64,000 nucleotides of DNA from Acidobacteriota bacterium (lineage in GTDB: Bacteria > Acidobacteriota > UBA6911 > JACOSC01): positions 947 through 64,946 of the forward strand of contig JACOSC010000071.1 of the NCBI GenBank assembly GCA_016179055.1, in the 5' to 3' direction. The first letter of the stretch is position 1. Every line of letters starts with the position of its first letter. The notes under the pieces were generated by a model. That model was not told the origin of the DNA. It was given only the letters and a program-made list of their open reading frames with translations, and did no database searches. Shown one piece after another: positions 12,868-42,744 of the stretch. A program made the position numbers and the translations under genes.

Positions 12868-12896
12868 GCAGACCGCCAGCGAAGAGGCGAAAGTTT

Positions 12897-16980: not shown

Positions 16981-17003
16981 CCGGCTCAGATCGGCGGCGG
17001 CTT

Positions 17004-19947: not shown

Positions 19948-20208
19948 ATGATCGTACCTATACATGATAAAAACAGAACCTTGATGGTCTCGGAGACGAC
20001 GCCTCCGGCTCACGATGCCGTCGAGACCTGGATTAGTGATTACCTACAAATATACCCAAAGTTCTCTCCGGCGGCCAACGCTCTGGCTCGCCTACTCGAA
20101 GCCGGTTTGCGGGACAAAGAAGAAATCAATCAGGCTATGGGATCTCTAGGATTCTCGGTCCCCAACCTTGATTTGATGTTGCAGTCCATGCATTTGATGG
20201 CCTCTTGA
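19948..20208 (+). CDS. Small hypothetical protein
   Basis: AAGGAG lies 8 nt before ATG 19948. 86 aa. No motif. Confidence 0.4.
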   Translation: MIVPIHDKNRTLMVSETTPPAHDAVETWISDYLQIYPKFSPAANALARLLEAGLRDKEEINQAMGSLGFSVPNLDLMLQSMHLMAS

Positions 20209-20319
20209 GCGCCGACGTCGGCGCATCGCTTTCGCGGAACAGCGCAGGCGAGGCGCGGAGATCGGCGACGCTACCCACCGGAAATCAGCCACCGGCGCAT
20301 GCCCCTCGGTCCTGGCATT

Positions 20320-20937: not shown

Positions 20938-21151
20938 ACCTTTGCTTCGGATTCCTCTGCTAAGTGGCGGTTTAGAAGATGGCATTATAACGCCTGCCGG
21001 CCACCTTAGCAAGCGGGCCGGCAGTGCGGCAGGAATTCCCGCTCTGGGAATGTGCCCTCTGCGTGGGAATTCCCAGAACTCTTGCCTATTCGGCCCTATT
21101 GCGCTATATTTGCCGTAGCTTCCGGGTACACTTCCTCAGCGCGGTGAGTCT

Positions 21152-26625: not shown

Positions 26626-28104
26626 TCAGAAAACGGTTTGGAGTTGCAAAAGGGGAAAGCCAATGACCCCTGACCGAGCTAACCCTCTGCCGGCCGAGGT
26701 TGTCGGATGCTGAAGATCTTGAACATAATAGTTCATCTGCAGCCTGAGCCGTTTATGGAAATAGGCATTTGCTCCGATGACAACCGTCGTCATTCGATTG
26801 CCGGCGATGTTAAAAGGGTTTCCGAAAAGTTGGCTCGGAAGAACAGGATTCATGGCCGCGAGGACCACGTTCTTTCCAGAATTAATCGACAAGCGATCGA
26901 CGCGGGCAATGAATTGCAATCCTCTGAGTTCGCTCCCGGTCAAAAATACTCCGCCGGAGGCCATGATGCCCCGGCGAACAAAATCGGGAAGGTCAAAAAC
27001 AAGGACGGTGCCGACAGGGATTCGTTCTCGCCGTTGCACTTCACGTACATATTCCCCTTGAAAAAAGGCGAGATGCGAACCGACGGTGAAGTCCCAACGG
27101 AAATCCGCGCCGCTGCGCGTCCGTAGTCCCTGTGTGGCGAGAGTGCCACTCGGAAGGACATTGGGTGGCAGGTTACTTCCCCCGAAAATAAAAGTGGATT
27201 CGGTGGGAAGGACGGGTCGTGTTTCGGCGCCTCGAAGATTGAGCGGTTGCTTGCCAAGTTGCAAACTCCCCGCGAGACTGAGGCCCGATCCGGCGTTAAT
27301 GGCAACTCTCCCGGCGAAATCCATCGCTCCATTGTCGTTAAGCGCATTGGCTAAATTGATGCCATTTCCATTGATAATCGCCGCATCCCACTTAAGCCGG
27401 TCGCCGAGAGCGAGCCCGCCGAAACCAATCCCGATGTTTCGAGCCGTTGTAATAGAATTCAGATTCGATTTCTCAATAAAATCAAGCGTCAGCCTGGAAT
27501 AGATAAACGATTCGCGCCCAAAAGGAGTTTTGAATTGACCGGCTCGGATGAAGAAGTGTTTGCCCAGGCCGGTATAATCAACATAGGCATTTTGCAAAAG
27601 GGCCTGCCCGCCTGTCAGATCGAATCCAAAATTATACTTAAATGCTTGGAAGACAGTCCCCATAAATTCAGGGCGAATCCGGCGAATAGAGAAGGTAGTA
27701 TTTTCACTCGCGCTTCTCGGATATACGACCCATTGCGTGTGAAGGCCTGTCAGGACCTGAAGTGAAAACTTGTTGTCGGAGGTTCGAACCTGTAATCCGT
27801 CACCGCTATAACTGACGCTCGCCGATGGTTGCTTTTTTGTTTCCTTCTGCTTAGGCGCCGCGGACTCTGTGGAGGAAGGCTGCGGTTCGGCGATTGTAAC
27901 GGCGGGCCTAGAAAGGTCATCCAGGCGCTTCTGAATCGCCTGCAGTTGCGTCTGAAGCGCGGACATCTGATTTCGCAACGCATTGATTTCGGCGTCTCGA
28001 TCCGGCGTCGCCCATGCCATCCAAGGAAAACAGGCGGCAAAAAAGACCGTCAAATAAACATATGGAATTTGTCTGCACGTTGATAAAAAGGATGCACGGT
28101 GCAT
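26626..28104 (-). CDS. Phosphate-selective porin O/P family outer-membrane channel
   Basis: GGGAGG lies before ATG 28104. Signal peptide ending WMAWA. Coiled-coil linker. Family-type stretches FSIRRIRPEF and FIRAGQFKTPFGRESF. C-terminal F. Confidence 0.8.
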   Translation of the reverse strand: MHRASFLSTCRQIPYVYLTVFFAACFPWMAWATPDRDAEINALRNQMSALQTQLQAIQKRLDDLSRPAVTIAEPQPSSTESAAPKQKETKKQPSASVSYSGDGLQVRTSDNKFSLQVLTGLHTQWVVYPRSASENTTFSIRRIRPEFMGTVFQAFKYNFGFDLTGGQALLQNAYVDYTGLGKHFFIRAGQFKTPFGRESFIYSRLTLDFIEKSNLNSITTARNIGIGFGGLALGDRLKWDAAIINGNGINLANALNDNGAMDFAGRVAINAGSGLSLAGSLQLGKQPLNLRGAETRPVLPTESTFIFGGSNLPPNVLPSGTLATQGLRTRSGADFRWDFTVGSHLAFFQGEYVREVQRRERIPVGTVLVFDLPDFVRRGIMASGGVFLTGSELRGLQFIARVDRLSINSGKNVVLAAMNPVLPSQLFGNPFNIAGNRMTTVVIGANAYFHKRLRLQMNYYVQDLQHPTTSAGRGLARSGVIGFPLLQLQTVF

Positions 28105-28137
28105 AGGATGTATTTCCTCCCTCACACTGGCACAAAA

Positions 28138-28186
28138 ACACGAAGGAACACAAAAGAGTCGTTTGTGATTCTTTGTTCCTTCGTGT
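28138..28186. repeat. 13-bp-stem hairpin repeat between the gamma and porin genes
   Basis: acacgaaggaaca (28138-28150) pairs with tgttccttcgtgt (28174-28186). Confidence 0.6.
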
Positions 28187-28241
28187 CTTTGTGGTGAAAT
28201 ATTTTTGGTTGCGGCTCTGCTGCGCTGTGTTCTCGGTGTCT

Positions 28242-28520
28242 CTTCCAGCGTGAATCTCTCGATCTTGATCAGGACGCGTTGGATCGTCCAAGCGTCGTTG
28301 TCGGTTGCCCCTTCGAGAAGGTTATAGGTAAAGTGTCCTTGGACGCGATTCTGGAGATGGATTTGGTTGTTCCCGTCTCCCATCTTGAGGCCGTCCCCGA
28401 CCTCGTATGGGGACCGCGAGCCGTTTTCCTCGGCGCTGAGGGTGCGGCCTGCGAGGAACAAGCTCGGCTCGATTAAGACCGCCGTGATCTTTGTGACTTT
28501 GGTTTCACTCGCTTCCCCTT
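28242..28520 (-). pseudogene. Possible remnant of a second porin O/P gene (N-terminal barrel segment only)
   Basis: In frame upstream of the porin: YEVGDGLKMGDGNNQIHLQNRVQGHFTY..WTIQRVLIKIERF parallels YSGDGLQVRTSDNKFSLQVLTGLHTQ..FSIRRIRPEF of the intact porin. No start codon or signal peptide. Confidence 0.3.
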
Positions 28521-30005
28521 TTAATTTTTTACTCCGTCGAAACGATAGGGCAGCCACTCCGACACGCTCTTCTGGCCATCGCGGTCCCTGGCCGATCCGT
28601 CCCACACCGCGACTGCGAGCTTCCCAGCGGTGCGCAGGTCGGCGTCGCCGCCGTAGCGAGTCTCGATGTCCCGCACGAAGACGACCCTCCAGCGGCCGTC
28701 GCGCCAAGCGCCGGTGCCGCTGACGTTCTGTTCCGCCGCCGGCTGCGGCGTCAGGGAACCGGGGCCAATCGCGTTCAAGTCCTCGATCGGCGAGCTGCGT
28801 TTGGCGGCGGCCATCGCGTTGCCCACCGCACCGGCGCGGACAGCGGTCGCTTTGCCGGCGATCTGGCTCGACAGCTCGAGCTGCCAGTCAGCTTTCCAGT
28901 GCCAGATGTTGACCGGCCCCGAGTGCATCCCCATACCGTAAAAGCTCCGCTCGGCCGCGCCCTCGCCCTGTTGGAGCGGAAACTCCAGCGCCACGCCGTC
29001 GCGGAAGTCCTCGATGCGCAGCGGCCGGGCATCCTGGGACGAATCGCGCCATTCGACGCGCACTGCCAGCCGCTTGCCGTCGCTCACGGCACGAACCTCC
29101 GCGGCATCCGGCGCCGCGTCGCGCGCGTACAGAGCCCGCAGCAGAACGGTCGCCGGCGTCGCGCGGTCGAAAATCGTGTCATCGGGGGTTACGCTGGGCG
29201 GCAGTTGCTCGCGAGCTATCACCAGCTCGCGGCTCGGCGCCGGCGGCGGCGCGCCGGACTTGCCGAGCTCCTGGACGAAGCAAGCCAGCGCCCACAGATC
29301 CTCGTCCGGGTAGGAGCCCTGGTAGGCGGGCATCGGCGTACCGCTCAGGCCGGTCGAGAACGTCCGGTAAATGTCCTCGAGCTTGCTGCCGCCCTTCATG
29401 CGGCCGCCGTGGGTGAAATCGTACGCGCGGATCGGATCGCCACGGTCGTCCTTGAGGGTCGTCGACGATGGACCATCGCCCTTGCCGCCCTCGCCGTGGC
29501 ACTTGGCGCAGCCCGCCTTGACGTACACCTGTGCCCCCCTGTCGGTGAGGGAGGCGCAGCTCGGGGCTTTCCCGATGGCGATCGGCGCCGCCGGCGTGCG
29601 CTCCTTCCACTCATTGGAGAATGTCTTGATGTGGGCAATCACCGCGCGCCGCTCGGCGTCGGTCAGTTGAGCCCACGACGGCATCGACGTGCCCGGGACG
29701 CCGTTATCGAGCGTGCGGAGCAGGTCGGCGTCGGTCGGCAACTCGCCCGACGGTGTCGAGCGGAACTTGAACACCGCGCGCGTGAAGTCGCGTGGCCGCG
29801 GCGATAACAAATATGCGATGCTGCCCTTGCCGTTGCCGCGGTCGCCGTGGCAAACGGCGCATTGCGCTTGGTATATCGCCTTGCCGGCGGCGACGGTAGC
29901 AGCAGTCTCACTGCTCTGTCGCGCCGCGCGCCGCGCCACCATGACCGCCACACCCGCGGCGACAAGCACCAGCACCGTGACGGTAAGCGCGATCCTGCGT
30001 CTCAT
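28521..30005 (-). CDS. Gamma subunit: membrane-anchored di-haem cytochrome c fused to an EB_dh-like haem b domain
   Basis: Start ATG 30005 overlaps the delta stop (ATGA). Anchor IALTVTVLVLVAAGVAVMV. Two CxxCH motifs (CAVCHG, CAKCHG). C-terminal domain VRVEWRDSS..DGVALEFPL..YGMGMHSGPVNIWHWKADW..VAVWDGSARDRDGQKSVSEW, as in the gamma subunits of type II DMSO-reductase enzymes. Confidence 0.8.
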   Translation of the reverse strand: MRRRIALTVTVLVLVAAGVAVMVARRAARQSSETAATVAAGKAIYQAQCAVCHGDRGNGKGSIAYLLSPRPRDFTRAVFKFRSTPSGELPTDADLLRTLDNGVPGTSMPSWAQLTDAERRAVIAHIKTFSNEWKERTPAAPIAIGKAPSCASLTDRGAQVYVKAGCAKCHGEGGKGDGPSSTTLKDDRGDPIRAYDFTHGGRMKGGSKLEDIYRTFSTGLSGTPMPAYQGSYPDEDLWALACFVQELGKSGAPPPAPSRELVIAREQLPPSVTPDDTIFDRATPATVLLRALYARDAAPDAAEVRAVSDGKRLAVRVEWRDSSQDARPLRIEDFRDGVALEFPLQQGEGAAERSFYGMGMHSGPVNIWHWKADWQLELSSQIAGKATAVRAGAVGNAMAAAKRSSPIEDLNAIGPGSLTPQPAAEQNVSGTGAWRDGRWRVVFVRDIETRYGGDADLRTAGKLAVAVWDGSARDRDGQKSVSEWLPYRFDGVKN

Positions 30006-30658
30006 GGCACCAAACCTCCGCTGTTCAGAATGGCGAGCCGCTCGGTTCCTTCGGTCACCGCCTTCTGCAAGTAGTCGCGATGGTTGAGGAGCAAAACCTC
30101 CAGGCATGCGCCGGCCCTGGTGTAGAACAGCTCCCGCGTCGCGCCAGGCAGGCGTCGATTGACGAGCGGGAACCAGGCCCCAAGGTGTCGCTCAAGGAAA
30201 TCCCGCTGGGCAAGCCGGAGAGCCTGCAGCTTCGCCTCCGTTCCGTCAGCCTTGGTTTCCTCCTCAGCCAGGTAAGCCATGAGCTCCAACTCCACACACA
30301 GGTGATCGGGATACTCTCGCGGTTCCTCGCACAGGTGCACGCCGAGGTGATCGTAAAACCTCATCAGGTCCATAAAGAGCGCCTGCCGCGTTCCGTCTTG
30401 CACGATCAACCCCTCGTGCAGGGGACAAGCCGGGGCCACATCGAACGCATTGATGTACTCCGGCTCAACTTCTTCCCACGGTAGGGAGAAGCGCAGATCC
30501 TCGTTCAAGGCCACGCAGAACGGCAACCGCGAGAACACTCCCCGGAGCCACGCCTGCGACGCTTCCGAGGCAAGGAGATCGTAGAAATCCTTGCTCGGAT
30601 ACGAAAAGGCCTGAGCGGCGAACATGTACGCTTGTGCGACGGGGTTCACGAGCTCCAT
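30002..30658 (-). CDS. Delta subunit: TorD/NarJ-family maturation chaperone
   Basis: 218 aa with EPEYINAFDVAP..PLHEG and YPDHLCVELELMAYL, typical of redox-enzyme maturation proteins. Sits between beta and gamma. Confidence 0.75.
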   Translation of the reverse strand: MELVNPVAQAYMFAAQAFSYPSKDFYDLLASEASQAWLRGVFSRLPFCVALNEDLRFSLPWEEVEPEYINAFDVAPACPLHEGLIVQDGTRQALFMDLMRFYDHLGVHLCEEPREYPDHLCVELELMAYLAEEETKADGTEAKLQALRLAQRDFLERHLGAWFPLVNRRLPGATRELFYTRAGACLEVLLLNHRDYLQKAVTEGTERLAILNSGGLVP

Positions 30659-31867
30659 TCACTTGCCCCCTTCATTGCCGGCGGCGGTGTCCTTGGAAGG
30701 AGGAACAAACTGCGTAGCCACCGGCTGCACCTCTTCGGGAAGCCGGAAGGGCGCCCCGCCAACGTTGAGCTGGAATCGATCCGCTGTGTCGAAACCGATG
30801 AGGATCTCGCACAGCTCCGACCGTTCGCCTCGCCGCACCCTCTCCTTCTCGGCGGTCAGCGTATCGAGGGCCTTTTTTACATTTTCCACGCCACCGAAAA
30901 GGCGGCCAAGATACTCGATGGGGATCCGGCGCTCCTTGAGCACTTCGCCTTTCGGGCCGAACTTGAACGACCCGATCGGGGGCACGTAGAAAACGTTGGG
31001 CCCGGTGCCGTACTCCGGGTGGAGGGGGAGGGCGACCTTCCAATCGTGGATGAGTTTGCGGACGGCGCTCTTGGGATCGTCCTTCCACCCGAGGAATCGT
31101 ATACGGCCCGGGCACTGCCAGAAGCAAGCCGGCGGTACCCCCTTCTCCACTCTCGGGTAGCATAGGAGGCACTTCTCGGACTTGCCCGTGGCAGGGTTGA
31201 AGAACACCTTTTTGTAGGGACAGGCGGTCACGCAGTGCCGATAGCCGCGGCACCGCTCCTGGTCAATCAGTACGATGCCGTCTTGTTTCCGCTTGTAGAT
31301 GGCTTTGCGCGGACATGCCGCAAGACAGGCCGGCGTCGTGCAATGGTTGCAAATCCGGGGCATGCTGAAGACCCAGTGATTGGGCCAATCGCCGGCGCCC
31401 TGGTCTTCCTCCCAGTTTGGGCCCCACTTGGGACGGACTTCCTTCCCTTGCCAGAGCGGGGCTACCCTCCTGGCGCGCGGATCATCGAAGGTCTGCCCCG
31501 GTTCGTAGACGCCCCCGTAGTCGTATTCCCAGGGAAGGCCGTAGTGGTCTTCCATCGTCGGGAGCGCTCCAAGCTGTACTTCTCCCCTGCTCTTGACGGC
31601 GCCGTCCGTGTGGCCCACTTCCAGGACGACGTCGGCGAAGCCTCCGCCCAGCACGTCGCCGGCGCCGTCGGCCGTCTGGTTCGTTCCGGCTCCCCACCCC
31701 TTCGGAAAGCCGTGACCCGGCATCGATTCCACGTTGTTCCAGTACATGTAGTCGCGGCCGTTCCGGTTCGTCCACATGAGCTTGCACGCCACGCTGCACG
31801 TGTGGCATTCAAGACACTTGTTCAGGTCGAACACTGCGGCCAGTTGTCGGCCCTCAAGCTCCGGCAT
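30659..31867 (-). CDS. Beta subunit: four-cluster Fe-S protein (NarH/EbdB/SerB-like)
   Basis: CLECHTCSVACK, CNHCTTPACLAACP, CRGYRHCVTACP, CLLCYPRVEKGVPPACFWQCP. Confidence 0.9.
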   Translation of the reverse strand: MPELEGRQLAAVFDLNKCLECHTCSVACKLMWTNRNGRDYMYWNNVESMPGHGFPKGWGAGTNQTADGAGDVLGGGFADVVLEVGHTDGAVKSRGEVQLGALPTMEDHYGLPWEYDYGGVYEPGQTFDDPRARRVAPLWQGKEVRPKWGPNWEEDQGAGDWPNHWVFSMPRICNHCTTPACLAACPRKAIYKRKQDGIVLIDQERCRGYRHCVTACPYKKVFFNPATGKSEKCLLCYPRVEKGVPPACFWQCPGRIRFLGWKDDPKSAVRKLIHDWKVALPLHPEYGTGPNVFYVPPIGSFKFGPKGEVLKERRIPIEYLGRLFGGVENVKKALDTLTAEKERVRRGERSELCEILIGFDTADRFQLNVGGAPFRLPEEVQPVATQFVPPSKDTAAGNEGGK

Positions 31868-31870
31868 GGC

Positions 31871-34828
31871 TCACACTCCCTCCGCTTTCTCGATATCCAC
31901 GCCCGTCTCGTAATAAATGCGGTTGCTGGTGTGGTTGCCCGAGAAGGCGTAGTGACCCTTGGTCGCACCCGCGAGCTCCAGCGGGTTCAGGAATTCGCAG
32001 TTAAGATTGTTGTAGTGGGTCCAGTTCTTACACATATAATGTTCCCATCCATGCTCCGTGAAGACCATGTAGGGGGGAAGCCCCGGCCACGACTTGGCCC
32101 GCGCGTACCACTCGCCCATGTGGTTGTAGACGCGCACCATGTCCATGTCCTCGATGCCCCTCTCCTTCATGACCTTGGGATTGAGGTATAGGTACACATC
32201 ACCGCGCTGGAGGCGCATCAGCCACCGGTTGTTCCGGTAGGCCGAGTGGATGCCCCACTTGGTGTGGGGGTAGTTCATGACGAACGGGTAGGCACTTCCG
32301 TTCGGCCGACGCGGCGACTGGGGCCCGCCCCGCCACTTGTCCGTGTACTGGGGCCTGGGCGTCGCCATGGCGAACTTGAGGTAGTAGTCGTGGTCCACGT
32401 AGAACTGGAAGCGGCCCGTGTTAGTTTTGGCCGGTTTCTTGTCGACAACCTGGTAGCGCAGAGAGCGAGCGGGGGCGTCGTCCTCGTAGTTGCCGTACTT
32501 GGCCGCGCCTCCGAACTTTACGTAGCCGTCCCGAACGAGTTTCTCGTGCCCTTCTTTTCCGATGCCCTTGGACTTCTCGTTGTGCCACTGGACGGCTTTC
32601 TCGTCCGTGTCAAGCGCGCCGTTGAGGATGTACTCGTCGTAGATCGTGTCCAGGTCGATGGTCCTTTTGACTGTCTTCTGTCCGTTCCAGTACTCGAAGA
32701 CGGTGCGCTTGAGGCCCCGCGCCCGCGCCTTCTCCTGAATGGCCTTGCATAGTCCCATATAGATCTGCCAGTCTGACTTGCGCTCGTACATCGGGGGAAC
32801 GGCGCGCCCGAACAGGGTGAGGAAGGGGTTCGTGGTCGTTTCCCGAAGGTCCCAGCGCTCGTAGTCGGTGGCAGCGGCGAGAACGTAGTCGCACGACTGC
32901 ATGGAAGACGTCATACGGATGTCGGCGCCGATGAGGAGCTCCACCTGGGGGAGGAACTTCTCGCGGAACCACTGCTGGCCCACCTTGTTGCGGTAATTGT
33001 TGCAGGAGTGCCAGAGGGCGATCTTGGGAGGTCGCATGTCGGGAAGGTACTTTTTCGCCAGCGCGTCCTTCAGGTAGACCTCCATGTCGTTCGCGTCGAA
33101 GCCGATCTGCTCCTTGAGCGGAGCCTTGGCGAAGTATTGCTTCGTGCGCTCCAGCCCCTTCCCGTAGACGAACTCGTAGGCAAGACCCACGGTAATCGGC
33201 TTTTTCCCGCCCTTCTTGGCCTCGATGCCCAACTCCGCGACCGCGGGCTGGTCGGGGTAATGGAGACCCCCGTCCGTCCTGCCGCCCTCGAGTTTCATTC
33301 CCTCGTAGGTCTGGTGGTAGGCCCCGCTGCCCCCGAGCTGCCCGGTCAGGACGAGGATGAGGATCTTGAGCCGCTCGGACTGGTGGCCGTCGTAGTGCTT
33401 CTGACAGTTGTACCCGTTGGTGATGTGCAGGGACTTGGACTCATAGATCCAGTCCACCATGGTCCGGATCACGGACGGGTGGAGGCCGGTGGCCTCTCGT
33501 ACCAGGTCGCTGTCGAGTGGATATTTTTTGAGACCGATCTTGACAAGCTCGAAAACAGTCGTGCACTTTGCCGTGCGGCCATCGGCAAGGGTGACGGTAA
33601 ACTGCCCCTCGAGGGCGGGCAAGTAGCCGAGCTTGGCGATGTCCAGGGTCTTGCGGTCCGCGGAGCTCTCGAGGCAACCCGGCGCCTCGACCGCCTGGCT
33701 GGTCTTGGTGTCCCAGAAGTAGTACTGGAGTTCTTTCCCATCGCGCTTCACATCCTTCTGGGTCAGGAACTTCTGGGTGTCCAGCCGCACCAGGAAAGGC
33801 AGGTCCGACTGCTCCTTCATGAACTCCTCGTCATACCTCTTCTCCTTGATGATCGTGTGGCAAATGGCAGCGGCGAGGGCAGCGTCGCCTGCCATCCGTA
33901 TGGGAACGAAAAGGTCGGCGGCCTGCGCCGCGGTGACGTTGTGGTTCGGGTCCACGACGATGACGCGCGCACCGTTGTACTTCGCCTCCGTTGCGAAATG
34001 CGCATCCGGCATGCGCATGGCGATGAAGTTCTGCGTCCAGGAGATGAGGAGATCAGCGGTGAACCAGTCATCCAGGTTAGAGCCGACGCGCCCGATGAGG
34101 ACCGTGTGCCCGGCGGGGTAGGCATCGCCTACCATCGCCGACACGGGGATGATCTGTCCGCCCAGGAGCCCCGTGAAGCGCTCAGAGCCGCCCTTGCTGA
34201 GCTGCGAAAAAGGCCGCGAGGTCGTAACCAGCGCACCGGGGTCCCGCGCAGTGATGTCAATGATCTTTTCCGCGATCTCGTTGAACGCTTCATCCCAACT
34301 GATCCGCTTCCACTTTCGTTCGCCTCGCTCGCCGGCTCGTTTGAGAGGGTACCGGAGGAAATCGGCCTGTAGTCTCCAGTCGGAGTATAGGCAACCCTTC
34401 TGGCAGCCACGGGGCGAGAAGGAAGGGATTCGGCCGAAGGGGCCGTAGCGTACGTATTCTCCCCGATCTTTGCCCATGATCGCATAAGTGTACTTGCCGG
34501 GAGTGTGTTTGCCATAGGCGGGGTAGGTCGCCGTCTGTTCCTCCCGCAGCGGAATTCCGCTTTTGGAATAGACCTTCCATGAACACTTGCCGACGCATCC
34601 CACGCTGTGGGTCGCGTACTGCACCCGATCCCAGACCCATTCCTTCCGGTAAAGGTCTTCCCATCGCTGGTAGTCCCACTCGGCGCCCTGCCAAGGGGGT
34701 TCCTGCGAAGGGACGATGAACCTAAACACCGCATAACCCACGGCCCCAACTGCCGCACCTCCGGCGGTCATCAGGAATCCACGCCGCGTGATTAGGCGCC
34801 GCGGGTCTTGCTCATTTTGCTGTGTCAT
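31871..34828 (-). CDS. Alpha subunit: Tat-exported molybdopterin oxidoreductase, type II (Nar-like) DMSO-reductase family
   Basis: GGAGG lies before ATG 34828. Twin-arginine leader RRLITRRGFLMTAGGAAVGAVG. FS0 motif HSVGCVGKC (H-x3-C-x3-C). 985 aa. Confidence 0.9.
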   Translation of the reverse strand: MTQQNEQDPRRLITRRGFLMTAGGAAVGAVGYAVFRFIVPSQEPPWQGAEWDYQRWEDLYRKEWVWDRVQYATHSVGCVGKCSWKVYSKSGIPLREEQTATYPAYGKHTPGKYTYAIMGKDRGEYVRYGPFGRIPSFSPRGCQKGCLYSDWRLQADFLRYPLKRAGERGERKWKRISWDEAFNEIAEKIIDITARDPGALVTTSRPFSQLSKGGSERFTGLLGGQIIPVSAMVGDAYPAGHTVLIGRVGSNLDDWFTADLLISWTQNFIAMRMPDAHFATEAKYNGARVIVVDPNHNVTAAQAADLFVPIRMAGDAALAAAICHTIIKEKRYDEEFMKEQSDLPFLVRLDTQKFLTQKDVKRDGKELQYYFWDTKTSQAVEAPGCLESSADRKTLDIAKLGYLPALEGQFTVTLADGRTAKCTTVFELVKIGLKKYPLDSDLVREATGLHPSVIRTMVDWIYESKSLHITNGYNCQKHYDGHQSERLKILILVLTGQLGGSGAYHQTYEGMKLEGGRTDGGLHYPDQPAVAELGIEAKKGGKKPITVGLAYEFVYGKGLERTKQYFAKAPLKEQIGFDANDMEVYLKDALAKKYLPDMRPPKIALWHSCNNYRNKVGQQWFREKFLPQVELLIGADIRMTSSMQSCDYVLAAATDYERWDLRETTTNPFLTLFGRAVPPMYERKSDWQIYMGLCKAIQEKARARGLKRTVFEYWNGQKTVKRTIDLDTIYDEYILNGALDTDEKAVQWHNEKSKGIGKEGHEKLVRDGYVKFGGAAKYGNYEDDAPARSLRYQVVDKKPAKTNTGRFQFYVDHDYYLKFAMATPRPQYTDKWRGGPQSPRRPNGSAYPFVMNYPHTKWGIHSAYRNNRWLMRLQRGDVYLYLNPKVMKERGIEDMDMVRVYNHMGEWYARAKSWPGLPPYMVFTEHGWEHYMCKNWTHYNNLNCEFLNPLELAGATKGHYAFSGNHTSNRIYYETGVDIEKAEGV

Positions 34829-34932
34829 GGTCCTCCGTCCGCTGCCGATAGAGGGCAGCCGTCACTGGCGTTGGCATCGCAAGCTATCCGGAGCCGCGCC
34901 GGCGGCGACTTGTCGGACAAGCCGAGGCTCGG

Positions 34933-34947
34933 GCAAGAACCGTGCCA
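34933..34947 (-). promoter_or_regulatory. Sigma54 (-24/-12) promoter of the Mo-enzyme operon
   Basis: The minus strand reads TGGCACggttcTTGC, an exact match to the TGGCAC-N5-TTGC consensus. It lies about 105 nt upstream of the alpha ATG and directly downstream of an NtrC-type activator gene. Confidence 0.8.
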
Positions 34948-35100
34948 CGACAGGCATGGGACGGCCGACGACGGATTCGACTTTGCAATCAGTTGTTTAT
35001 CTGACCATTGGCGCGACGCCGGCGGCGTCGGTTTCGCACGTGTGCAAGGAAGTCCTGGTGATCCCTCTTGCGCCGCTGCGAGACGCATCGTGAGCGCCCG

Positions 35101-36456
35101 CTATTCCGGACTACGGTCAACCGTGGAGAGCTTGCGGTAGAGCGTGGCGGGATCAATCCCGAGGCGCCGCGCCGCCTCTTCCTTATTGCCTCCGACGGCG
35201 TCGAGCACATGCCGAATGTGCTCCTGCTCGTAGACTCGCAACGCCGCGCGCAGGTCGTCGGCCACCACACGCTTCGGCCCCTTGCCCGAAAGCCTTTCCG
35301 GCAAGTGCTCCACGGCGATCATTCCGTCCTGCGTCAAGATGGCGGCACGCTCGATGACATTCTGGACCTCGCGCACATTGCCGGGCCACTGGTAGGCGAG
35401 AAGGAGCTGCATGGCGGCGCGATCGATGATGCGAATCTCGCGCTTCAGGTCCGCGCTGAACTTGCGACGGAAGTGCTCGGCGAGGAGCGGTATATCCTCC
35501 CTGCGTTCTCTCAGTGGTGGGAGGTGCAACTCTATGACGGAGAGGCGAAAGAAAAGATCTTCTCGAAAGGTTCCCGCCTTCACGCACTCGGCGAGGTTGC
35601 GGTTGGTAGAGGCGACAATGCGCGTGTCTACGGTTCTCGGCTGAGTTGCGCCGAGAGGCAAGACCTGCTTCTGTTCCACAACGCGCAGGAGCTTCGCCTG
35701 CGTTTCGATACTCATCTCGCTTATTTCGTCGAGGAAGAGAGTCCCGTCCTTGGCGGCCTCAACGAGACCGATCCGGTCTCGCACCGCTCCAGTGAACGCC
35801 CCGCGCAAGTGCCCGAACAGCTCGCCCTCCAACAAGGAATGAGGCAGAGCTGCACAGTTGACGGCAACGAACCGCTCCTCCCGACATGGACTGGCCTGAT
35901 GAAGCAGCCGTGCAACAACTTCCTTACCGGTCCCCGTCTCGCCCGTGATAAGCACGGTCGTCCGTGTCGGTGCAACACGCTTGATGAGCTCGTACACTTG
36001 AGCCATTGCCCGACTCTTCCCAACGAGCCCAGTGACCTCGGTTGTGCGGACGAGCTCCCGGCGAAGCGCACGCAGCTTCGCGAGCGCCTCCTGGTGATCC
36101 AGGAACCGGCGTACTTTGCGGTCGACCTCGTCGGCGTTCAGGGGTTTGAGGAGATAATCCACGGCTCCTGCCCGAAACGCTTCCATTGCCGTCTCGAGTG
36201 AACCAAAGGCCGTCATCACAAAAACACCTACCTCCGGCTTCCCTCCGATCTCTCGCAGCAGCGCCAAGGCGCCCCCTCCAGGCATAACAACGTCGCAAAG
36301 AACCACGCTCGAGCCCAGCGCCTGCACGGTCTTAACGGCAGTCTCGATGTCACCGGTCGTGCGGCACTCGAAACCGCGACGACGAAGGAGTCTCGCCAGG
36401 TCTTCTCGAAAAGGTTCCTCGTCATCTACGATGAGCAGATTCGGCTTCATGTTCAC
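35101..36456 (-). CDS. Sigma54-dependent response regulator (NtrC family)
   Basis: Receiver NLLIVDDEEP, Walker A GETGTGKE, sigma54-contact loop GAFTGA, C-terminal Fis-type HTH AARRLGIDPATLYRKL. Confidence 0.9.
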   Translation of the reverse strand: MNMKPNLLIVDDEEPFREDLARLLRRRGFECRTTGDIETAVKTVQALGSSVVLCDVVMPGGGALALLREIGGKPEVGVFVMTAFGSLETAMEAFRAGAVDYLLKPLNADEVDRKVRRFLDHQEALAKLRALRRELVRTTEVTGLVGKSRAMAQVYELIKRVAPTRTTVLITGETGTGKEVVARLLHQASPCREERFVAVNCAALPHSLLEGELFGHLRGAFTGAVRDRIGLVEAAKDGTLFLDEISEMSIETQAKLLRVVEQKQVLPLGATQPRTVDTRIVASTNRNLAECVKAGTFREDLFFRLSVIELHLPPLRERREDIPLLAEHFRRKFSADLKREIRIIDRAAMQLLLAYQWPGNVREVQNVIERAAILTQDGMIAVEHLPERLSGKGPKRVVADDLRAALRVYEQEHIRHVLDAVGGNKEEAARRLGIDPATLYRKLSTVDRSPE

Positions 36457-36491
36457 TCTTCACCGTCAGTGGGTTCTGGCTCGGCTCGACC

Positions 36492-38465
36492 TTAGCTAAG
36501 GTGTGCCGTGGCCGGCAAAACAATCTCGAACCGGCTGCCTTGTCCGGGTTGCCCGTCCCCGCGCATGGCTCCCCCAAGCTCGCAGACGATTTTGTGACTG
36601 AGGAACAAGCCGAGGCCGGTTCCTCCTTTCTTGGTGGTGAAAAAAGGCCGAAAGAGGTTTGTCTTCGCTTCCTCGCTCAGGCCGCACCCCGAATCGGCGA
36701 ACTCCACCCGAACCTTGTTTGCGCTGGCCTGGACGCGAATGCCAAGGCGTCCCCCGCCCGGCATGGCCTCCAGACCATTCAAAGCGACGTTGAGAAACAC
36801 CTGGCTGAGCTGGTCGGTGGATGCCTTCACCCACGGCAGAACGTCCGGCGACTGTAACTCAATGAGAACATCTCGGGCGCGGGGGTCCATTCGGATCATG
36901 GAGATGATCTGAACGAGCACGTCCCCCGGATTGCAGATAGACGAAGACGGAGCGGGCGCGGCAAAGCGCGTGACGCTGTGGACGAGGCGGCGGATTCGCT
37001 CGATCTGCTCTCGCAGAAGTTGTGCGCTCTCACGCGCGAACACCGCGCCACCCTCCTCTTCTTCCATGAGCTGAAGCCGCGTCACCATCGAAGCGATCGG
37101 GTTGCCGATCTCATGCGCCAACGCAGTCGCCATGCGCCCGAGGGCCGCCATCTTTGTGGCGTGGAGGACCTCCGCCTCCATGGCCTTCTGGTCCGTGACA
37201 TCGTGCACGAGCTCCAACACCTGCGGCGACTTTCCGCTGTCCATTTGCAAGGGAATCGCCTGGATGCGGAGGATGCGGCCACGACCGTCGGGAAGAGGGT
37301 GGGGTGTTTCTATGGCAACGGATTCTCCGCTGCGAAGCGCCCGTGCCGTGGCGCATTCCCGGCATGCCGCGCGGGTGTTCGTCGCGTGTGGAAAAAGTGG
37401 ACAGGCGTCGGGCTGCGCGCCTTCACCGTCTGGAAACTTGAACCACTGGCGGGCCAGCTGATTACACCAGATCAGGCGATGATCATTCGACCACAGGAGC
37501 AAAGCCGCGCCCATCGAGTTGACGACCGCCGTAAGCCTTTGCTCCGATGATCCGAGTTTTTCCGCCGAGCGCAAGAGATCGAGATCCCGAAGCTGCAGTT
37601 GTTCGCGCAGCAATACCGCAAAGTAGGCGGTGACCCAGAACACGAGGAGGCAGGACGTCACCTTGCCGAGCACGAAGGGCATGTAGACCGCGGCATAGTC
37701 CCTCGCACCGGCCTGAGCCGAGTAGGGAAATAGGGCGATCGGATAATGAGGCAGGAGCCCCGTTGCTTCCGCAACAGCCATGGCGGCGAGCAGTAATGAA
37801 GCCCATGCCACAATCGCATAGGCCGTGCGCGCCTGAAAGAGGATCGCGGCGATTACGATATGGAATATAAAGACGCGGGAGAACGGATTCTCGATGCCGC
37901 CGGAGAAGTGCAGGAGCCCCGTTAGAAACACGAGGTCCAAGCCGACTTGAAGAATGAGGAAACGATCGAGACGTCGCACCCGCCGAAGCGCGAGAGAGAA
38001 GGCCAGATTGCTCAAAGCAAGTCCAGCGATCGTTCCAAGCAGGGGCGCAAGGACATCGGTAGGGAGGAGGTCGAAGTACCGAACTCCCAACAACGTCGCG
38101 AGGAGCGTCACGATCACGACAGCCCAGCGCATGGTAATGAACCAACGAGCGTTCTGCCGAAGCGTCGCTTCGATATGCGATGCGGGTGACGTGAGACGCG
38201 GGGCAATCTCCTGGGACGGGAAAATGCGCGGCGCCCACCGCAGCAGGAACCATCCGACCACGAGGCCCACTAGCATCGAGGTTCCAAGTCCTCGAACCAG
38301 GTGGAGCACCCGGAGGAGATCGGAGTTCGCATCGCGCAACCACAGCCGCTCAACGACTTCATAGCCGCCGAAGATGCCGATGATGCCCAAGCCGCAAAGC
38401 AACGCGAGCCAGCCGACTGCCTGCGGTTTCGATTCCTGGTCCGATCCTTTGCCTGTTCTGTTCAT
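36492..38465 (-). CDS. Multi-TM sensor histidine kinase with Cys-rich PAS domain
   Basis: About 7 N-terminal hydrophobic segments. PAS-like region with C334, C355, C368 and C371. H-box LAHEIGNPI. HATPase motifs (GGTGLGL). Confidence 0.85.
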   Translation of the reverse strand: MNRTGKGSDQESKPQAVGWLALLCGLGIIGIFGGYEVVERLWLRDANSDLLRVLHLVRGLGTSMLVGLVVGWFLLRWAPRIFPSQEIAPRLTSPASHIEATLRQNARWFITMRWAVVIVTLLATLLGVRYFDLLPTDVLAPLLGTIAGLALSNLAFSLALRRVRRLDRFLILQVGLDLVFLTGLLHFSGGIENPFSRVFIFHIVIAAILFQARTAYAIVAWASLLLAAMAVAEATGLLPHYPIALFPYSAQAGARDYAAVYMPFVLGKVTSCLLVFWVTAYFAVLLREQLQLRDLDLLRSAEKLGSSEQRLTAVVNSMGAALLLWSNDHRLIWCNQLARQWFKFPDGEGAQPDACPLFPHATNTRAACRECATARALRSGESVAIETPHPLPDGRGRILRIQAIPLQMDSGKSPQVLELVHDVTDQKAMEAEVLHATKMAALGRMATALAHEIGNPIASMVTRLQLMEEEEGGAVFARESAQLLREQIERIRRLVHSVTRFAAPAPSSSICNPGDVLVQIISMIRMDPRARDVLIELQSPDVLPWVKASTDQLSQVFLNVALNGLEAMPGGGRLGIRVQASANKVRVEFADSGCGLSEEAKTNLFRPFFTTKKGGTGLGLFLSHKIVCELGGAMRGDGQPGQGSRFEIVLPATAHLS

Positions 38466-39753: not shown

Positions 39754-40104
39754 CTAGAAGACAAGTATCTTATCTGCGTCCTGCGTCCACGCGGCGAGTT
39801 CTTCCATTGAGCTTCGGCGAGCGCTTTCCAGCAGAGACTCGGCTTTGAGTCCGCGGGCATCCATACAGGACCCGCACACGCCGATCTTCGCACCCTTGAT
39901 CGCCAGAGTCTTCAACATCCGCTCGATGTTGTAGTACCCATAGGGTGTCGTTTGCCCAACAACAGCACAACCCACGCCATCACCGATCAGAAAAACAGAG
40001 ACGTAAGTGGCTTCGGCCTTTGCCATCGAACTCGCCAGCCGCAATCCGTTATAACTGCGTTCCGTCCCGTAGGGCGGATCGTTTAGAATAACCAGATACT
40101 TCAT
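39754..40104 (-). CDS. DsrE/DsrF-like sulfur-relay family protein
   Basis: AAGGAAG lies before ATG 40104. MKYLVILNDPPYGTERSYNGLRLA..FLIGDGV..IGVCGSCMDARG is typical of the DsrE family. Confidence 0.7.
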   Translation of the reverse strand: MKYLVILNDPPYGTERSYNGLRLASSMAKAEATYVSVFLIGDGVGCAVVGQTTPYGYYNIERMLKTLAIKGAKIGVCGSCMDARGLKAESLLESARRSSMEELAAWTQDADKILVF

Positions 40105-40136
40105 ACGGCTACTTCCTTTCCGCGCGTTGTTGTCCG

Positions 40137-41363
40137 CTACCATCCGAAATGCAACGGAGGCCAATCGTGGCGAATCCGGGCAAGGTAGTACTTCTCAAAA
40201 ACCAGTTTCAGGTACCGCGCCCACTTTCCTTTCTTGTGGATCACTTTGTTACGCGGCGGCAGAAATGGATCCGCGTACAGATAGAACGCCGTGTCGCCCG
40301 CATCGGCGATACAAGTCGCCGGAAGCGCGAGCCCGTCTACCTTGGTACCACCGTGTAGCTCGGCCACGATGTTGTGTACCGCCGCGTGAGCCATCAGTTC
40401 GGTCATGTGACCGGTCTTGGGAACTGCCACAGGGACTAGAGTTTTACCCGGAGGAGGAATGGCGACTGCGACACCGACCGCGTAAATGTTTTCGAACTTT
40501 GGGCTCGTCAGTTGTGACGTGACCGAAACAAATCCTCTCGGATTGGCCAGCCCCTCGACCCCACGGACGAACCCGGCGCCAAGAAAGGCGGGGATCACCA
40601 GCGAGAAGTCGAAGCGGCGCTCGCACCCGTCCTGGAGTACCAATCGGTCTGGACGGGCCTCAACGATCTTCGCGTCGACGATTGGCTCAATATCGCGGTC
40701 GGCAAATTCATCCTCGATCATCCGCGGAGCCATGCCGATGCCACCTACTCCGAAATGACCCAGGAACGGTTCGGGTGTGATGAAGCTGAGCGTGAATTGA
40801 TGACGCTGCTTCGCCTTCCTGAGCACGGTGTCGATCATCATGGCGATCTCGTAGGCAGGACCAATGCAGCTCGCTCCGGCCGTCGCGCCGACGACAATGC
40901 GTCCTGACTCGCCGGCAATGACACGCGCCAGCGCCTGGCGAGCGCAGACCGCCTCCTCGACGGTGAAGGTCGATTGAATATGTCCTGCGGCGGGACCCAG
41001 GCCGGGCACCGCCGCCCAGTCCAGCTCGGCGCCCGAAGCGATCAGCAATATGTCGTAAGGAAACGTTGCGGACTCGGTACGGACTTCACCCTTATCCGGG
41101 TACAGCTCGCGGACCTCGCCGTGAACGAAGCGGACGCCGCGGCGGGTGAGCGTAGAATCGAGCGGCACCTGAAGCCGTGCAGGGTCGCGCCATCCAAGAA
41201 TCACCCACGGCAGCGAAGGAAGGAAGGTGAACGCCGCGTCCCTGGAGATCAACGTGATCTCAGCTTGATCGCCCAGCCGCCGACGGAGAGCGTAAGCCGC
41301 GTTGATCCCGCCAAACGATCCCCCGACGATCACGATCTTCTTATGGCTGGAACTCATATTCAT
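40137..41363 (-). CDS. sqr: Sulfide:quinone oxidoreductase
   Basis: KKIVIVGGSFGG, GATAGASCIGPAYEIAM, VIPAFLGAGFVRGVEGLANPRGFV, VPKTGHM and CIADAGD align stretch by stretch with my recollection of type I SQR (Acidithiobacillus enzyme), including the two redox Cys. Confidence 0.85.
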   Translation of the reverse strand: MNMSSSHKKIVIVGGSFGGINAAYALRRRLGDQAEITLISRDAAFTFLPSLPWVILGWRDPARLQVPLDSTLTRRGVRFVHGEVRELYPDKGEVRTESATFPYDILLIASGAELDWAAVPGLGPAAGHIQSTFTVEEAVCARQALARVIAGESGRIVVGATAGASCIGPAYEIAMMIDTVLRKAKQRHQFTLSFITPEPFLGHFGVGGIGMAPRMIEDEFADRDIEPIVDAKIVEARPDRLVLQDGCERRFDFSLVIPAFLGAGFVRGVEGLANPRGFVSVTSQLTSPKFENIYAVGVAVAIPPPGKTLVPVAVPKTGHMTELMAHAAVHNIVAELHGGTKVDGLALPATCIADAGDTAFYLYADPFLPPRNKVIHKKGKWARYLKLVFEKYYLARIRHDWPPLHFGW

Positions 41364-41409: not shown

Positions 41410-42744
41410 TTAGAAATCGTAGCGGACTCGGAAGAATACGTTATCGCTTCTGTTCAACTGTCCGAAGAAGGTCGTCTCGCTTTTTCCGCCGAAGATGTTG
41501 GCGCCCGCGGAGACGCCCAGGTTGTCGGTGAGTTTGTGTGAGACCTCAGGCTGGAGGAAGTAGTCGTTGTCTGTGGGGCTGTAAGCCGCAAACAGCGATA
41601 GCGTCCACGTCTGATACTTCAGCATTCTGGTCAACCGGGCCGAGACCACGCCGCGAAACCGGTCCTGTTGCGGCATCCCGGCTGGGAGTGAATCGCGATA
41701 GGCCCGATAGTCGTTCATGATCTCCCCATAAACCTGAACCCCGGCCGTGAAGTCCTGGGCCAGTTCGCGTTGGTATCCGGCGAGCACACGCCATTGCGAG
41801 TTCGGGATGGCAGCATCGCGGCCACTCCGGTCTTGCCGCGAGTCGTAGTAGCCTGCCTCGAGACTGAAAACGCCTTCGAAAAAACCCCGCTGTGCGCTTA
41901 AGCCATATACGGAGAGCTCCGGATAGAATCGTGTTGCGGTGGTTGGGGCGGCCAGGTTGTCGAGTCGCGCACCCGGAGAGCGCCAGTAACCTCGATAGGC
42001 GTAAACTGAAACGTCGTACTCGGCCAGCTTTCGATAAACTCGCAGAGCCACTTCGGTGTTTGCGGCGCCGACGGCGGGCTTCTCTTCACGCTGGTTCCGG
42101 ACCGTGGCGAACGGATCGAAAAAGAAAAACCTCTTGGCTGACGGCAAGCTATCAGGCGTGAAGAAAGGAACTGCGACGATCTCGGCATTGAGGCTGCTTC
42201 CAGAATAACGGATACGCGCCCCATCGACGCCCCGCTTCAGGTACTCCATCGGCCGGCCCGAAAAGAACGACTCCCAATCCTTGGGAAAGACGTCGTTGAC
42301 GAAGAAGAGATCGCCGACGCCCCAGGTGATAATCTGGCGGCCCAGGCGAAGATCAAGAGGTCCTCGGCTATAGCCTGCATACCCTTCGCGAAGCTCGCCG
42401 GCGAATCTCTTTGCGATGGCATCGTAGAAGGTGTCGCCCTTCGTCACGAAGTAACCCTTGCCTGACCGGGTCGCCCCGCTGATATCGAGACGCAGCCGCC
42501 CCTCACCTAGCACGAAGTTCCCGCCCTCTCCTTTAAACGGGCGCTCGCCGGTAGTACGCACCGCGACATCACCCAGCAGGAACCCGTGAATCTCGACAGG
42601 AATCTTCTTCTCCTTTCCTGTCTGCGCCGAGTTCGCAACGTCAGACGTGGGCGCGGCTGGCCCGTCCTGCGCCATAGAAGCGGAAGCAATTAAACAGGTA
42701 AGCGCCACTGATAGCAGTAAGAAAGTAGCTTTCATTTTATCCAT
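41410..42744 (-). CDS. Outer-membrane beta-barrel protein (DUF1302-like)
   Basis: Signal peptide ending SMAQ, LRLGRQIITWGVGDLFFVNDVF, C-terminal RYDF. Confidence 0.65.
   Translation of the reverse strand: MDKMKATFLLLSVALTCLIASASMAQDGPAAPTSDVANSAQTGKEKKIPVEIHGFLLGDVAVRTTGERPFKGEGGNFVLGEGRLRLDISGATRSGKGYFVTKGDTFYDAIAKRFAGELREGYAGYSRGPLDLRLGRQIITWGVGDLFFVNDVFPKDWESFFSGRPMEYLKRGVDGARIRYSGSSLNAEIVAVPFFTPDSLPSAKRFFFFDPFATVRNQREEKPAVGAANTEVALRVYRKLAEYDVSVYAYRGYWRSPGARLDNLAAPTTATRFYPELSVYGLSAQRGFFEGVFSLEAGYYDSRQDRSGRDAAIPNSQWRVLAGYQRELAQDFTAGVQVYGEIMNDYRAYRDSLPAGMPQQDRFRGVVSARLTRMLKYQTWTLSLFAAYSPTDNDYFLQPEVSHKLTDNLGVSAGANIFGGKSETTFFGQLNRSDNVFFRVRYDF

Follow-up and report, generated by a model that had tools for sequence, protein, structure and literature searches.

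Organization of the Locus

We analysed a 64,000 nt stretch of an Acidobacteriota genome (contig JACOSC010000071.1 of assembly GCA_016179055.1), here called the window, which carries on its minus strand a locus for a predicted periplasmic molybdoenzyme of the type II branch of the dimethyl sulfoxide (DMSO) reductase family. The locus comprises genes for a sensor histidine kinase, an NtrC-type response regulator, the alpha, beta, delta and gamma subunits of the enzyme and an outer-membrane porin (Table 1). All seven had been listed in this order and at these coordinates in an earlier note made from the sequence alone, and the spacing that we read directly from the sequence has the same values as in that note: 3 nt between alpha and beta, 0 nt between beta and delta, an ATGA overlap of delta and gamma, and 416 nt between gamma and the porin gene. 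The genes are presumably co-transcribed.

The 272 nt gap between the regulator gene and the alpha gene contains the sequence TGGCACGGTTCTTGC, located 105 nt upstream of the alpha ATG. It is the sole exact match to TGGCAC-N5-TTGC in the 64-kb window, for which simple arithmetic gives a chance expectation of about 0.1, and it corresponds to the consensus sigma-54 promoter that had been proposed between these two genes. Two palindromes 70–110 nt upstream of the −24 element are candidate activator-binding sites. The response regulator matches the Pfam family Sigma54_activat with an E-value of 4e-68 (229 bits). A −24/−12 element adjoined by the gene of a bacterial enhancer-binding protein characterizes a sigma-54 operon, and RpoN dependence is predicted for the locus.

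Rfam and tRNA scans of the window (e.g., for a Moco riboswitch) gave nothing, and a scan for terminators and sigma-70 promoters between 26.0 and 39.5 kb gave counts at the level of shuffled sequence and nothing usable in the gap between gamma and porin. This gap (28105–28520) is read through by a 693-aa open reading frame (ORF) in the porin frame, which shows no stop codon over the 600 nt preceding the porin ATG. Its translation resembled the start of a barrel, and a porin remnant or a longer porin was considered. This was rejected, since tblastn gave only a hit of E ~3 to the window's own porin and Pfam gave nothing. The Porin_O_P match of the porin is partial.

The GC content at third codon positions (GC3) is 0.76 for delta, 0.78 for beta, 0.82 for alpha and 0.84 for gamma, and 0.72 for the kinase and the regulator. 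The porin gene has a value of 0.54, the next gene downstream 0.60, and the flanking genes range from 0.52 to 0.75. The composition of the operon (0.72–0.84 versus 0.52–0.75 in the flanks) suggests acquisition, although the contrast is too modest for proof, and the compositional step hints at separate histories of the operon and the porin gene.

Table 1. Position of the locus genes, regulatory elements and possibly associated genes within the window.
Feature	Position	Strand	Characteristics
Sensor histidine kinase	36492..38465	−	657 aa; PilS-like with 6 transmembrane segments, PAS with four Cys, HisKA, HATPase (Pfam)
NtrC-type sigma-54-dependent response regulator	35101..36456	−	451 aa; Response_reg, Sigma54_activat, AAA_lid_14, HTH_8 (Pfam)
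Palindromes, candidate activator-binding sites	35014..35047	.	CGACGCCG-N-CGGCGTCG and TTGCACACGTGCGAA
Sigma-54 −24/−12 element	34933..34947	−	TGGCACGGTTCTTGC; exact consensus
Alpha, catalytic Mo-bisPGD subunit	31871..34828	−	985 aa; predicted Tat leader, FS0, D235
Beta, four-cluster Fe-S subunit	30659..31867	−	402 aa; TIGR03478 448 bits
Delta, NarJ/TorD-type cytoplasmic assembly chaperone	30002..30658	−	218 aa; PF02613, TIGR03482
Gamma, dihaem cytochrome c and EB_dh haem-b domain	28521..30005	−	494 aa, counted from internal ATG at 30005
Outer-membrane porin, OprO/P family, N-terminal coiled coil	26626..28104	−	492 aa; Porin_O_P E 2.6e-14
Possibly associated SQR/FCSD-like flavoprotein (408 aa) and DsrE-like protein (136 aa)	39754..41363	−	
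Possibly associated HAE3/MMPL-type RND transporter, LolA-like periplasmic protein and DUF1302-like outer-membrane protein	41410..45859	−	Pfam, NCBIfam

Properties of the Enzyme Subunits

The N-terminus of alpha reads ...RRLITRRGFLMTAGGAAVGAVGYA and contains the twin-arginine motif TRRGFL, which predicts export by the twin-arginine translocation (Tat) pathway. The ligands of the FS0 cluster are present as H74-x3-C78-x3-C82...C142 and are invariant in the alignment of 19 members of the clade that is described below. The Mo ligand D235 aligns with D170 of PcrA, the GD of EbdA and the D of NarG, and is also invariant in the clade. The twin-arginine leader and the H-x3-C-x3-C motif for FS0 had been noticed before on alpha, and the assignment as a type II enzyme, presumably exported by Tat and with a predicted Asp ligand (D235), is borne out.

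Alpha scored 843 bits with TIGR03479, the model for alpha subunits of the selenate reductase (Ser), chlorate reductase (Clr), dimethyl sulfide (DMS) dehydrogenase (Ddh) and ethylbenzene dehydrogenase (Ebd) type, and thus remained below the cut-off of 985. Similarly, beta reached 448 bits with TIGR03478 (cut-off 481). Judged by these scores, alpha and beta are clear homologs outside the curated NCBIfam core. The EbdA equivalog NF042978 gave 372 bits versus a cut-off of 2000, and NarG and other specific models were also far under their cut-offs. Among PDB entries, alpha matched best to PcrA (373 bits), followed by EbdA (359 bits), while NxrA of Kuenenia was a weak match (140 bits).

Between the third and the fourth FS0 ligand, alpha carries an insertion of ~22 residues (GKHTPGKYTY..GEYVRYG; residues ~106–131) that is specific to the clade and not present in any other group of the alignment. 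The stretch at the Mo site, SAMVGDAYP(A/G)GH, resembles S-x-M/F-x-GDLYPG of Clr and Ser and is unlike that of Ddh, Ebd, perchlorate reductase (Pcr) and Nar. The motifs S-x-M/F-x-G-D-x-Y-P-G and DDWFT(A/S)D are common to the clade of the window and to Clr/Ser, and are absent in Ddh, Ebd and Nar.

The companion subunits are those of a type II enzyme: a beta subunit whose cysteines form four groups, a delta of the NarJ type and a gamma with an EB_dh domain (TIGR03478, TIGR03482, TIGR03477, PF09459). Beta is 51% identical to ClrB and 74 aa longer, with two insertions and a C-terminal extension of ~35 aa. Gamma begins with a hydrophobic segment, either an anchor or a signal, which is followed by two c-type cytochrome domains (CAVCH, CAKCH) and the EB_dh haem-b domain (Pfam). 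Its cytochrome part matches a dihaem cytochrome of Kuenenia (PDB 6h5l_B, E 1e-53), and the EB_dh part matches NxrC of Kuenenia (7b04_C) and EbdC. A conserved Met and a conserved Lys of gamma align with the M of 'tMGatg' and the K of 'GrKsys' in EbdC, which we take to be the haem ligands Met108 and Lys201 of EbdC. The alpha-beta-delta-gamma set of the earlier note is confirmed as to its subunits; gamma is not a plain haem-b subunit, however, and its fusion to a dihaem cytochrome c had been overlooked. SerABC of Thauera receives electrons from a dihaem cytochrome c4, a path that Lowe and co-workers reportedly described in 2010. The dihaem fusion of gamma would match this path and, by analogy, supports a Ser-like function.

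A Sister Clade of Chlorate and Selenate Reductases

Searching 5.8 billion proteins with alpha gave 16 clusters at 71–100% identity and 4 at 57–59%. The next group, at 44–48% identity, is annotated as chlorate reductase or DMS dehydrogenase, and the following one (35–37%, ~910 aa) includes DdhA of Rhodovulum sulfidophilum. In a library at 50% identity (~15 billion proteins), one representative stands for the whole clade, and the next match scored 837 versus 1848 bits. Characterized references were supplied by tblastn against plasmids. Alpha is 43.4% identical to ClrA of Ideonella dechloratans and 31% to pNarG of Haloferax mediterranei; fragments of PcrA and EbdA were 34–36% (BLASTP) and about 35% identical, respectively. 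The proteins of the 44–46% group are themselves 84–93% identical to I. dechloratans ClrA.

In a neighbour-joining tree of 71 sequences, with NarG as outgroup and without SerA of Thauera, the clade came out as monophyletic, with the ClrA clade as its sister group and the Ddh clade as sister to the two combined (100/100 bootstraps each). Clark et al. found that Thauera SerA groups with Ideonella ClrA (PMC3735179). Based on the tree, the identities and this placement of SerA, the clade of the window is a separate sister of Clr/Ser that lies inside no characterized clade; alpha does not belong to the ClrA clade. The phylogeny of alpha that the earlier note had proposed as a check thus revealed no nesting in a characterized clade, with ClrA as nearest relative in a sister position.

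The named hosts of the clade are metagenome-assembled genomes (MAGs), mostly from groundwater, which are labelled as Rokubacteria, Planctomycetota, Nitrospiria/Nitrospirae, Thermodesulfovibrionales, Nitrospinota, Deltaproteobacteria and Thermodesulfobacteriota. Since alpha is 57–81% identical across these phyla, the module evidently moves horizontally. The NAD synthetase encoded in the window is 58–60% identical to the enzymes of Kuenenia, Brocadia and Jettenia and 72% to one further sequence. By this protein, an uncultured planctomycete with affinity to Brocadiia would be the probable host of the window, in agreement with the Kuenenia-like cytochrome domains of gamma and with the planctomycete locus L005 described below; the assembly itself is labelled Acidobacteriota. 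Literature searches found no paper describing the clade. By its sequences it is a well-delimited, so far undescribed subfamily, seen so far only in uncultured bacteria.

Gene Neighbourhoods of the Clade

For comparison, we collected 13 loci from GTDB species representatives and a dozen from metagenome and other assemblies, which together gave ~16 independent informative loci including the window (single loci are designated by L numbers). The order alpha-beta-delta is invariant across the clade loci. Cytochrome c and EB_dh parts are encoded in every locus, fused as in the window in 8 of them; in the remaining loci they are split over individual genes for cytochrome c, EB_dh and further cytochromes c. 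Upstream of its kinase, the planctomycete locus L005 has a second gamma-like gene (4524–6473; dihaem cytochrome c and EB_dh) besides the one after delta, and L004 encodes an additional EB_dh protein.

A sigma-54 regulator with its kinase adjoins the enzyme genes in 9 of the 16 loci. L005 has the same gene order as the window, including a homologous porin directly after gamma; its kinase and regulator, at equivalent positions, are 55% and 61% identical to those of the window. The regulator of the window is also 38–43% identical to the alpha-adjoining regulators of L002, L011, L016 and L020. Upstream of alpha, −24/−12 elements with 8–9 of 10 positions were found in L002, L005, L011, L012 and L016 (background rate 64 per 434,450 positions). 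Other loci have alternative regulators: one of NarL type in L004, and ArsR-rhodanese and PAS-LuxR proteins directly upstream of alpha in L006, L008 and L009, with an additional kinase/regulator pair ~9 kb away in L008. In 8 of the 16 loci a periplasmic binding protein of the PhnD family is encoded beside the kinase; the best PDB matches of these proteins are PtxB (phosphite, 82 bits) and then AioX/ArrX (~52 bits). A Porin_O_P gene adjoins the enzyme genes in 6 of 16 loci (e.g., L012/L024, L014, L016, L023). The porin of L023 has a sub-threshold match to ExtI, a porin of a selenite/tellurite operon (68 bits versus a cut-off of 150). Recurrence of regulator and porin, as asked for in the earlier note, was hence observed in part of the loci.

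The PAS domain of the window kinase contains four cysteines (C334, C355, C368 and C371; residues 334–371, window 37353–37466 on the minus strand), which are conserved in the ortholog of L005. This cluster could be a metal, Fe-S or redox-sensing site, by analogy to NreB, rather than a substrate site. The kinases of L020 and L023 have a related C...C-x2-C pattern in their PAS domains, and the PAS-LuxR regulators of L006 and L008 show C...C-x3-C.

The absence of telltale companion genes that had been stated for the window holds for chlorite dismutase (cld; see below), but the window does contain genes that recur in the clade or stand close by. An SQR/FCSD-like flavoprotein is encoded in 3 loci (window, L004, L023), and next to it in the window a DsrE-like protein. 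Genes for MMPL (HAE3), LolA-like and DUF1302-like proteins recur in the window, L004 and L011, with the fetched part of L004 covering the LolA-like and DUF1302-like genes only; one idea is that this trio serves the export or handling of an insoluble product. A CarboxypepD_reg-like protein occurs in 5 loci (L004, L014, L016, L020, L023). Recurring rhodanese matches were considered as sulfur carriers and rejected, since they are mostly the ArsR-rhodanese regulators of L006, L008 and L009. An ArsR-type helix-turn-helix (HTH)-rhodanese gene is also found in L028 of the Clr/Ser clade (Pfam only), and the window has a small ArsR/SmtB-type HTH gene upstream of the MMPL gene (45883–46290, minus strand), a homolog of those of L006, L008 and L009 without the rhodanese part. 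Further upstream on this strand are genes for a 1034-aa protein with BNR/sortilin repeats (47842–50946) and for a second, weakly LolA-like protein (51278–52036).

L001 is a contig of 321 kb, in which positions 1–9934 and 17421–21238 represent the flanks of the enzyme genes. One flank encodes a haem-copper oxidase as well as a second molybdoenzyme, which is accompanied by a LytTR-type two-component system; the other encodes a cytochrome bd-like oxidase, two cytochromes c and a separate EB_dh protein, an arrangement known from Nitrospira genomes.

Other large genes of the window are unrelated to the locus: a 2185-aa ORF (144–6701) and a multi-zinc-ribbon protein (12849–14192) on the plus strand, and a CHAT protease beside an 823-aa TPR protein (15994–19475) and a Ser/Thr kinase with PD40 repeats (23354–25897) on the minus strand.

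Comparison to Known Systems

The sensing and uptake genes are not restricted to this clade. L026 harbours P0022, a basal alpha of the Clr/Ser branch (Thermodesulfobacteriota/Deltaproteobacteria MAGs), and has the gene order binding protein, kinase, sigma-54 regulator, Porin_O_P, alpha-beta-delta-gamma (ABDC). Its porin and that of L023 share 82% identity, its binding protein and that of L020 share 60%, while the value for the alphas is only about 46%. In Sedimenticola selenatireducens AK4OH1 the Clr/Ser-type genes are flanked by genes for a binding protein, a kinase and a sigma-54 regulator, as well as a UbiE-type methyltransferase (as in L004), a CarboxypepD_reg protein, and DUF1302-like and LolA-like proteins that are 39% and 49% identical to those of the window. 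This neighbourhood is shared with the clade loci, although the Sedimenticola alpha is about 45% identical and differs from the window alpha in the same signatures as ClrA. The strain can use selenate, nitrate or nitrite as electron acceptor for growth, and on peptone also chlorate or perchlorate (PMC5052931). A sensing and uptake cassette common to both enzyme clades suggests the same or a very similar class of substrate.

ClrABDC of I. dechloratans and Alicycliphilus denitrificans BC shares with the window the ABDC order, Tat export, the Asp ligand, FS0 and an EB_dh gamma. It contains the nearest characterized alpha (43.4%) and a beta of 51% identity, and the two clades are sisters. In contrast to clr, the locus of the window has no linked cld and no transposon context, and has a sigma-54 two-component system and a porin; its alpha has the ~22-aa FS0 insertion and Met in place of a Trp, its beta is extended by 74 aa, and its gamma has two extra c-haem domains. 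SerABDC of Thauera selenatis is placed by its published grouping with Ideonella ClrA (PMC3735179) in the sister clade of the window alpha, whose members are about 43–46% identical to it. The cytochrome c4 of Thauera is a separate protein, whereas the dihaem cytochrome of the window is fused to gamma.

PcrABCD of Azospira suillum PS is likewise a periplasmic type II enzyme, and pcrABCD, which has an RpoN motif in front of pcrA, is controlled by RpoN and by pcrPSR, which includes a kinase and a sigma-54 regulator (PMC3884062). It differs from the window in having the tetrahaem cytochrome PcrC instead of an EB_dh gamma, in the presence of cld and a NapC-type quinol dehydrogenase, both missing here, and in the aromatic gate residues, which the window alpha does not keep. 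Because of the sigma-54 control of pcr and the Clr/Ser-type neighbourhood of S. selenatireducens, the layout is not foreign to known members, and the view of the earlier note that the architecture does not match textbook members finds no support.

DdhABDC of R. sulfidophilum, from the same supergroup, has the subunits of the window enzyme, among them a gamma with haem b, and exchanges electrons with a c-type cytochrome; it is set apart by 35–37% identity, the motif FT-x-VGDL versus SAMVGDAY in the window, and its position on another branch. In AioXSR and ArxXSR, a binding protein is combined with a kinase and a sigma-54 regulator, and sensors of this type control reductases too, as ArrXSR does. 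The relatives of the window resemble these systems, as they encode a PtxB/AioX/ArrX-like protein, a kinase and mostly a sigma-54 regulator beside a molybdoenzyme. The catalytic subunits of these systems, however, are on other branches of the DMSO reductase family, and the window itself lacks a gene for a binding protein, its kinase having a PilS-like membrane domain instead.

Probable Function of the Enzyme

Since regulators (9 of 16 loci) and porin (6 of 16) recur in the relatives, an inducible periplasmic oxyanion enzyme, as proposed in the earlier note, remains the best reading of the locus. More specifically, we tentatively favour a cytochrome c-linked reductase of a high-potential oxyanion, with selenate as the leading candidate, and would give this slightly less than an even chance. 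The arguments are the sister relationship to Clr/Ser, the Clr/Ser-like Mo site, the common cassette, the Sedimenticola context, the lack of cld and the cytochrome fusion. The substrate, which had been called unassignable, is still unproven; it is not fully unassignable, as the common cassettes point to the substrate class of Ser and Clr.

According to this selenate or oxyanion reductase model, the kinase would phosphorylate the NtrC-type regulator, which would then activate the sigma-54 promoter upstream of alpha. Alpha, with Mo-bisPGD (the molybdenum bis-pyranopterin guanine dinucleotide cofactor) bound via Asp235 and with FS0, would mature with the help of delta and be exported by Tat together with beta and its four Fe-S clusters. 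Gamma would be exported separately and connect the enzyme to the cytochrome c pool through haem b and the two c-haems. The anionic substrate would enter the periplasm via the OprO/P-type porin, and the high-potential oxyanion would be reduced as a respiratory acceptor. A chalcogen product may be dealt with by the products of the adjacent flavoprotein, DsrE and transporter genes. We infer the direction of electron flow, the substrate and the roles of the neighbouring genes from the comparisons given above.

Several observations weigh against a selenate reductase. The identity to any characterized enzyme does not exceed about 43%, and functions in the Clr/Ser/Ddh group already diverge (chlorate, selenate, DMS). 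The Trp of the Clr/Ser motif TYEG-W is replaced by Met in the main subclade and by Arg in the 57% subclade, and the FS0 region and beta carry clade-specific insertions. Because of this loss and these insertions, substrate or kinetics may differ from those of Ser and Clr, and the specificity may be different from both. No binding protein accompanies the window kinase, whose PAS domain, rich in Cys, may respond to the redox state rather than to a substrate. The porin gene differs strongly in GC3 from the ABDC genes (0.54 versus 0.76–0.84) and is separated by 416 nt, and its co-expression with them is tentative. In L001 the enzyme genes lie between the haem-copper oxidase and the bd-like oxidase cluster, and wiring by cytochrome c would suit an oxidizing enzyme equally well. 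As to Sedimenticola, the gene of this strain is 82% identical to the ClrA-type protein P0054, which is 93% identical to Ideonella ClrA, and the genome paper leaves unstated which of the two paralogs reduces selenate (PMC5052931).

Rather doubtful, in our view, is the alternative that the enzyme works in the oxidizing direction and passes electrons from arsenite, sulfite, selenite, phosphite or nitrite via haem b and the c-haems to cytochrome c, from which a terminal oxidase or another acceptor would take them, i.e., that it supports lithotrophy. The sensor layout of the relatives is like that of AioXSR/ArxXSR, with binding proteins that match PtxB and AioX/ArrX; ArrXSR demonstrates, however, that sensors of this kind also govern reductases, and the same cassette serves Clr/Ser-type enzymes, including those of a selenate respirer. 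The loci examined encode only c-type cytochromes and haem b and no quinol dehydrogenase, in L001 a haem-copper oxidase is encoded on one side of the enzyme genes and a bd-like oxidase, with an EB_dh protein of its own, on the other, and genes for SQR/FCSD-like flavoprotein, DsrE and rhodanese are nearby. The nearest characterized relatives, Clr and Ser, are nevertheless reductases, and the active-site pattern of Nar/Nxr is absent. Hosts such as the Nitrospiria, Nitrospinota and Rokubacteria MAGs are of lithotroph type, while several others carry the labels of anaerobes (Thermodesulfovibrionales, Thermodesulfobacteriota).

Reduction of chlorate or perchlorate, in respiration or detoxification, is improbable. 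It would be in line with ClrA of I. dechloratans as the closest biochemically characterized homolog (43.4%), with the in vitro reduction of chlorate by many enzymes of the group (PMC3735179), and with the sigma-54/two-component control of pcrABCD (PMC3884062). The chlorite formed would have to be removed by a cld encoded elsewhere or abiotically by sulfide, and an SQR-like gene does adjoin the locus. However, tblastn with Cld of Ideonella found no homolog in the 64-kb window or in any of the fetched clade loci, although cld is in tight linkage with clr and pcr in the known systems (PMC3735179, PMC3884062). The present data also give no sign of a chlorate supply to these uncultured organisms. 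In the alignment F164, Y165 and W461 of PcrA are replaced by V229, S230 and M511/K512 in alpha. Youngblut and co-workers reportedly described these three residues in 2016 as the aromatic gate of PcrA. W461, which is altered in the mutant PDB entry 5e7o versus 4ydd, aligns with the Trp of Clr/Ser (MAFFT), which is also found in Ddh.

We consider it still more improbable that the enzyme is a dehydrogenase or hydroxylase of an uncharged or hydrophobic compound, similar to those for DMS, ethylbenzene or sterol C25, with the HAE3/MMPL, LolA-like and DUF1302-like genes handling the substrate. The family does include Ddh, Ebd and S25dh, EbdA is the second-best PDB match, and genes for HAE3-type RND, LolA-like and DUF1302-like proteins recur (window, L004, L011). 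On the other hand, the tree places the clade with Clr/Ser and not with Ddh or Ebd, the score with the EbdA equivalog model is far too low (372 bits versus 2000), anion-type porins and oxyanion-type binding proteins recur, and neither the window nor any related locus was found to have genes of hydrocarbon or sterol catabolism. It is very improbable that the enzyme reduces nitrate or oxidizes nitrite in the periplasm (pNar/Nxr type): this would fit the common superfamily, the similarity of the haem-b and dihaem domains of gamma to NxrC and a cytochrome of Kuenenia, and a host with probable affinity to Brocadiia, but alpha shares only 31% identity with Haloferax pNarG and gave a weak match to Kuenenia NxrA (140 bits), the clade is outside the Nar/pNar branches of the tree, and the Y-x4-D pattern of the Mo site in Nar/Nxr (PMC6050957), whose Y is kept by NarG and pNarG in the same alignment, reads S230-x4-D235 here.

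Implications for the Type II Enzymes

The neighbourhood of the enzyme yields a short and concrete list of substrates, while the general mechanism is conventional and many other clades of the DMSO reductase family are unassigned as well. It is somewhat unlikely, though worth considering, that the clade catalyses a reaction that is new to the type II enzymes, either by oxidizing arsenite, sulfite, selenite or phosphite with reduction of cytochrome c, as a basis of lithotrophy in uncultured lineages mostly from groundwater, or as a respiratory reductase of an oxyanion other than selenate, chlorate and nitrate. In that case, the clade would have adapted to its chemistry by the FS0 insertion, the missing Trp and the fusion of gamma to a cytochrome. 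In the Clr/Ser/Ddh group small changes in sequence switch between chlorate, selenate and DMS chemistry, and a sister clade with signatures of its own is a clean target for a new specificity and a test of the residues that set the substrate. The cassette of binding protein, kinase, sigma-54 regulator and porin could mark periplasmic oxyanion respiration in genomes. If the enzyme of the window is a selenate reductase, selenium respiration of the Ser type would extend to lineages whose genes are now labelled 'chlorate reductase', 'DMS dehydrogenase' or nothing.

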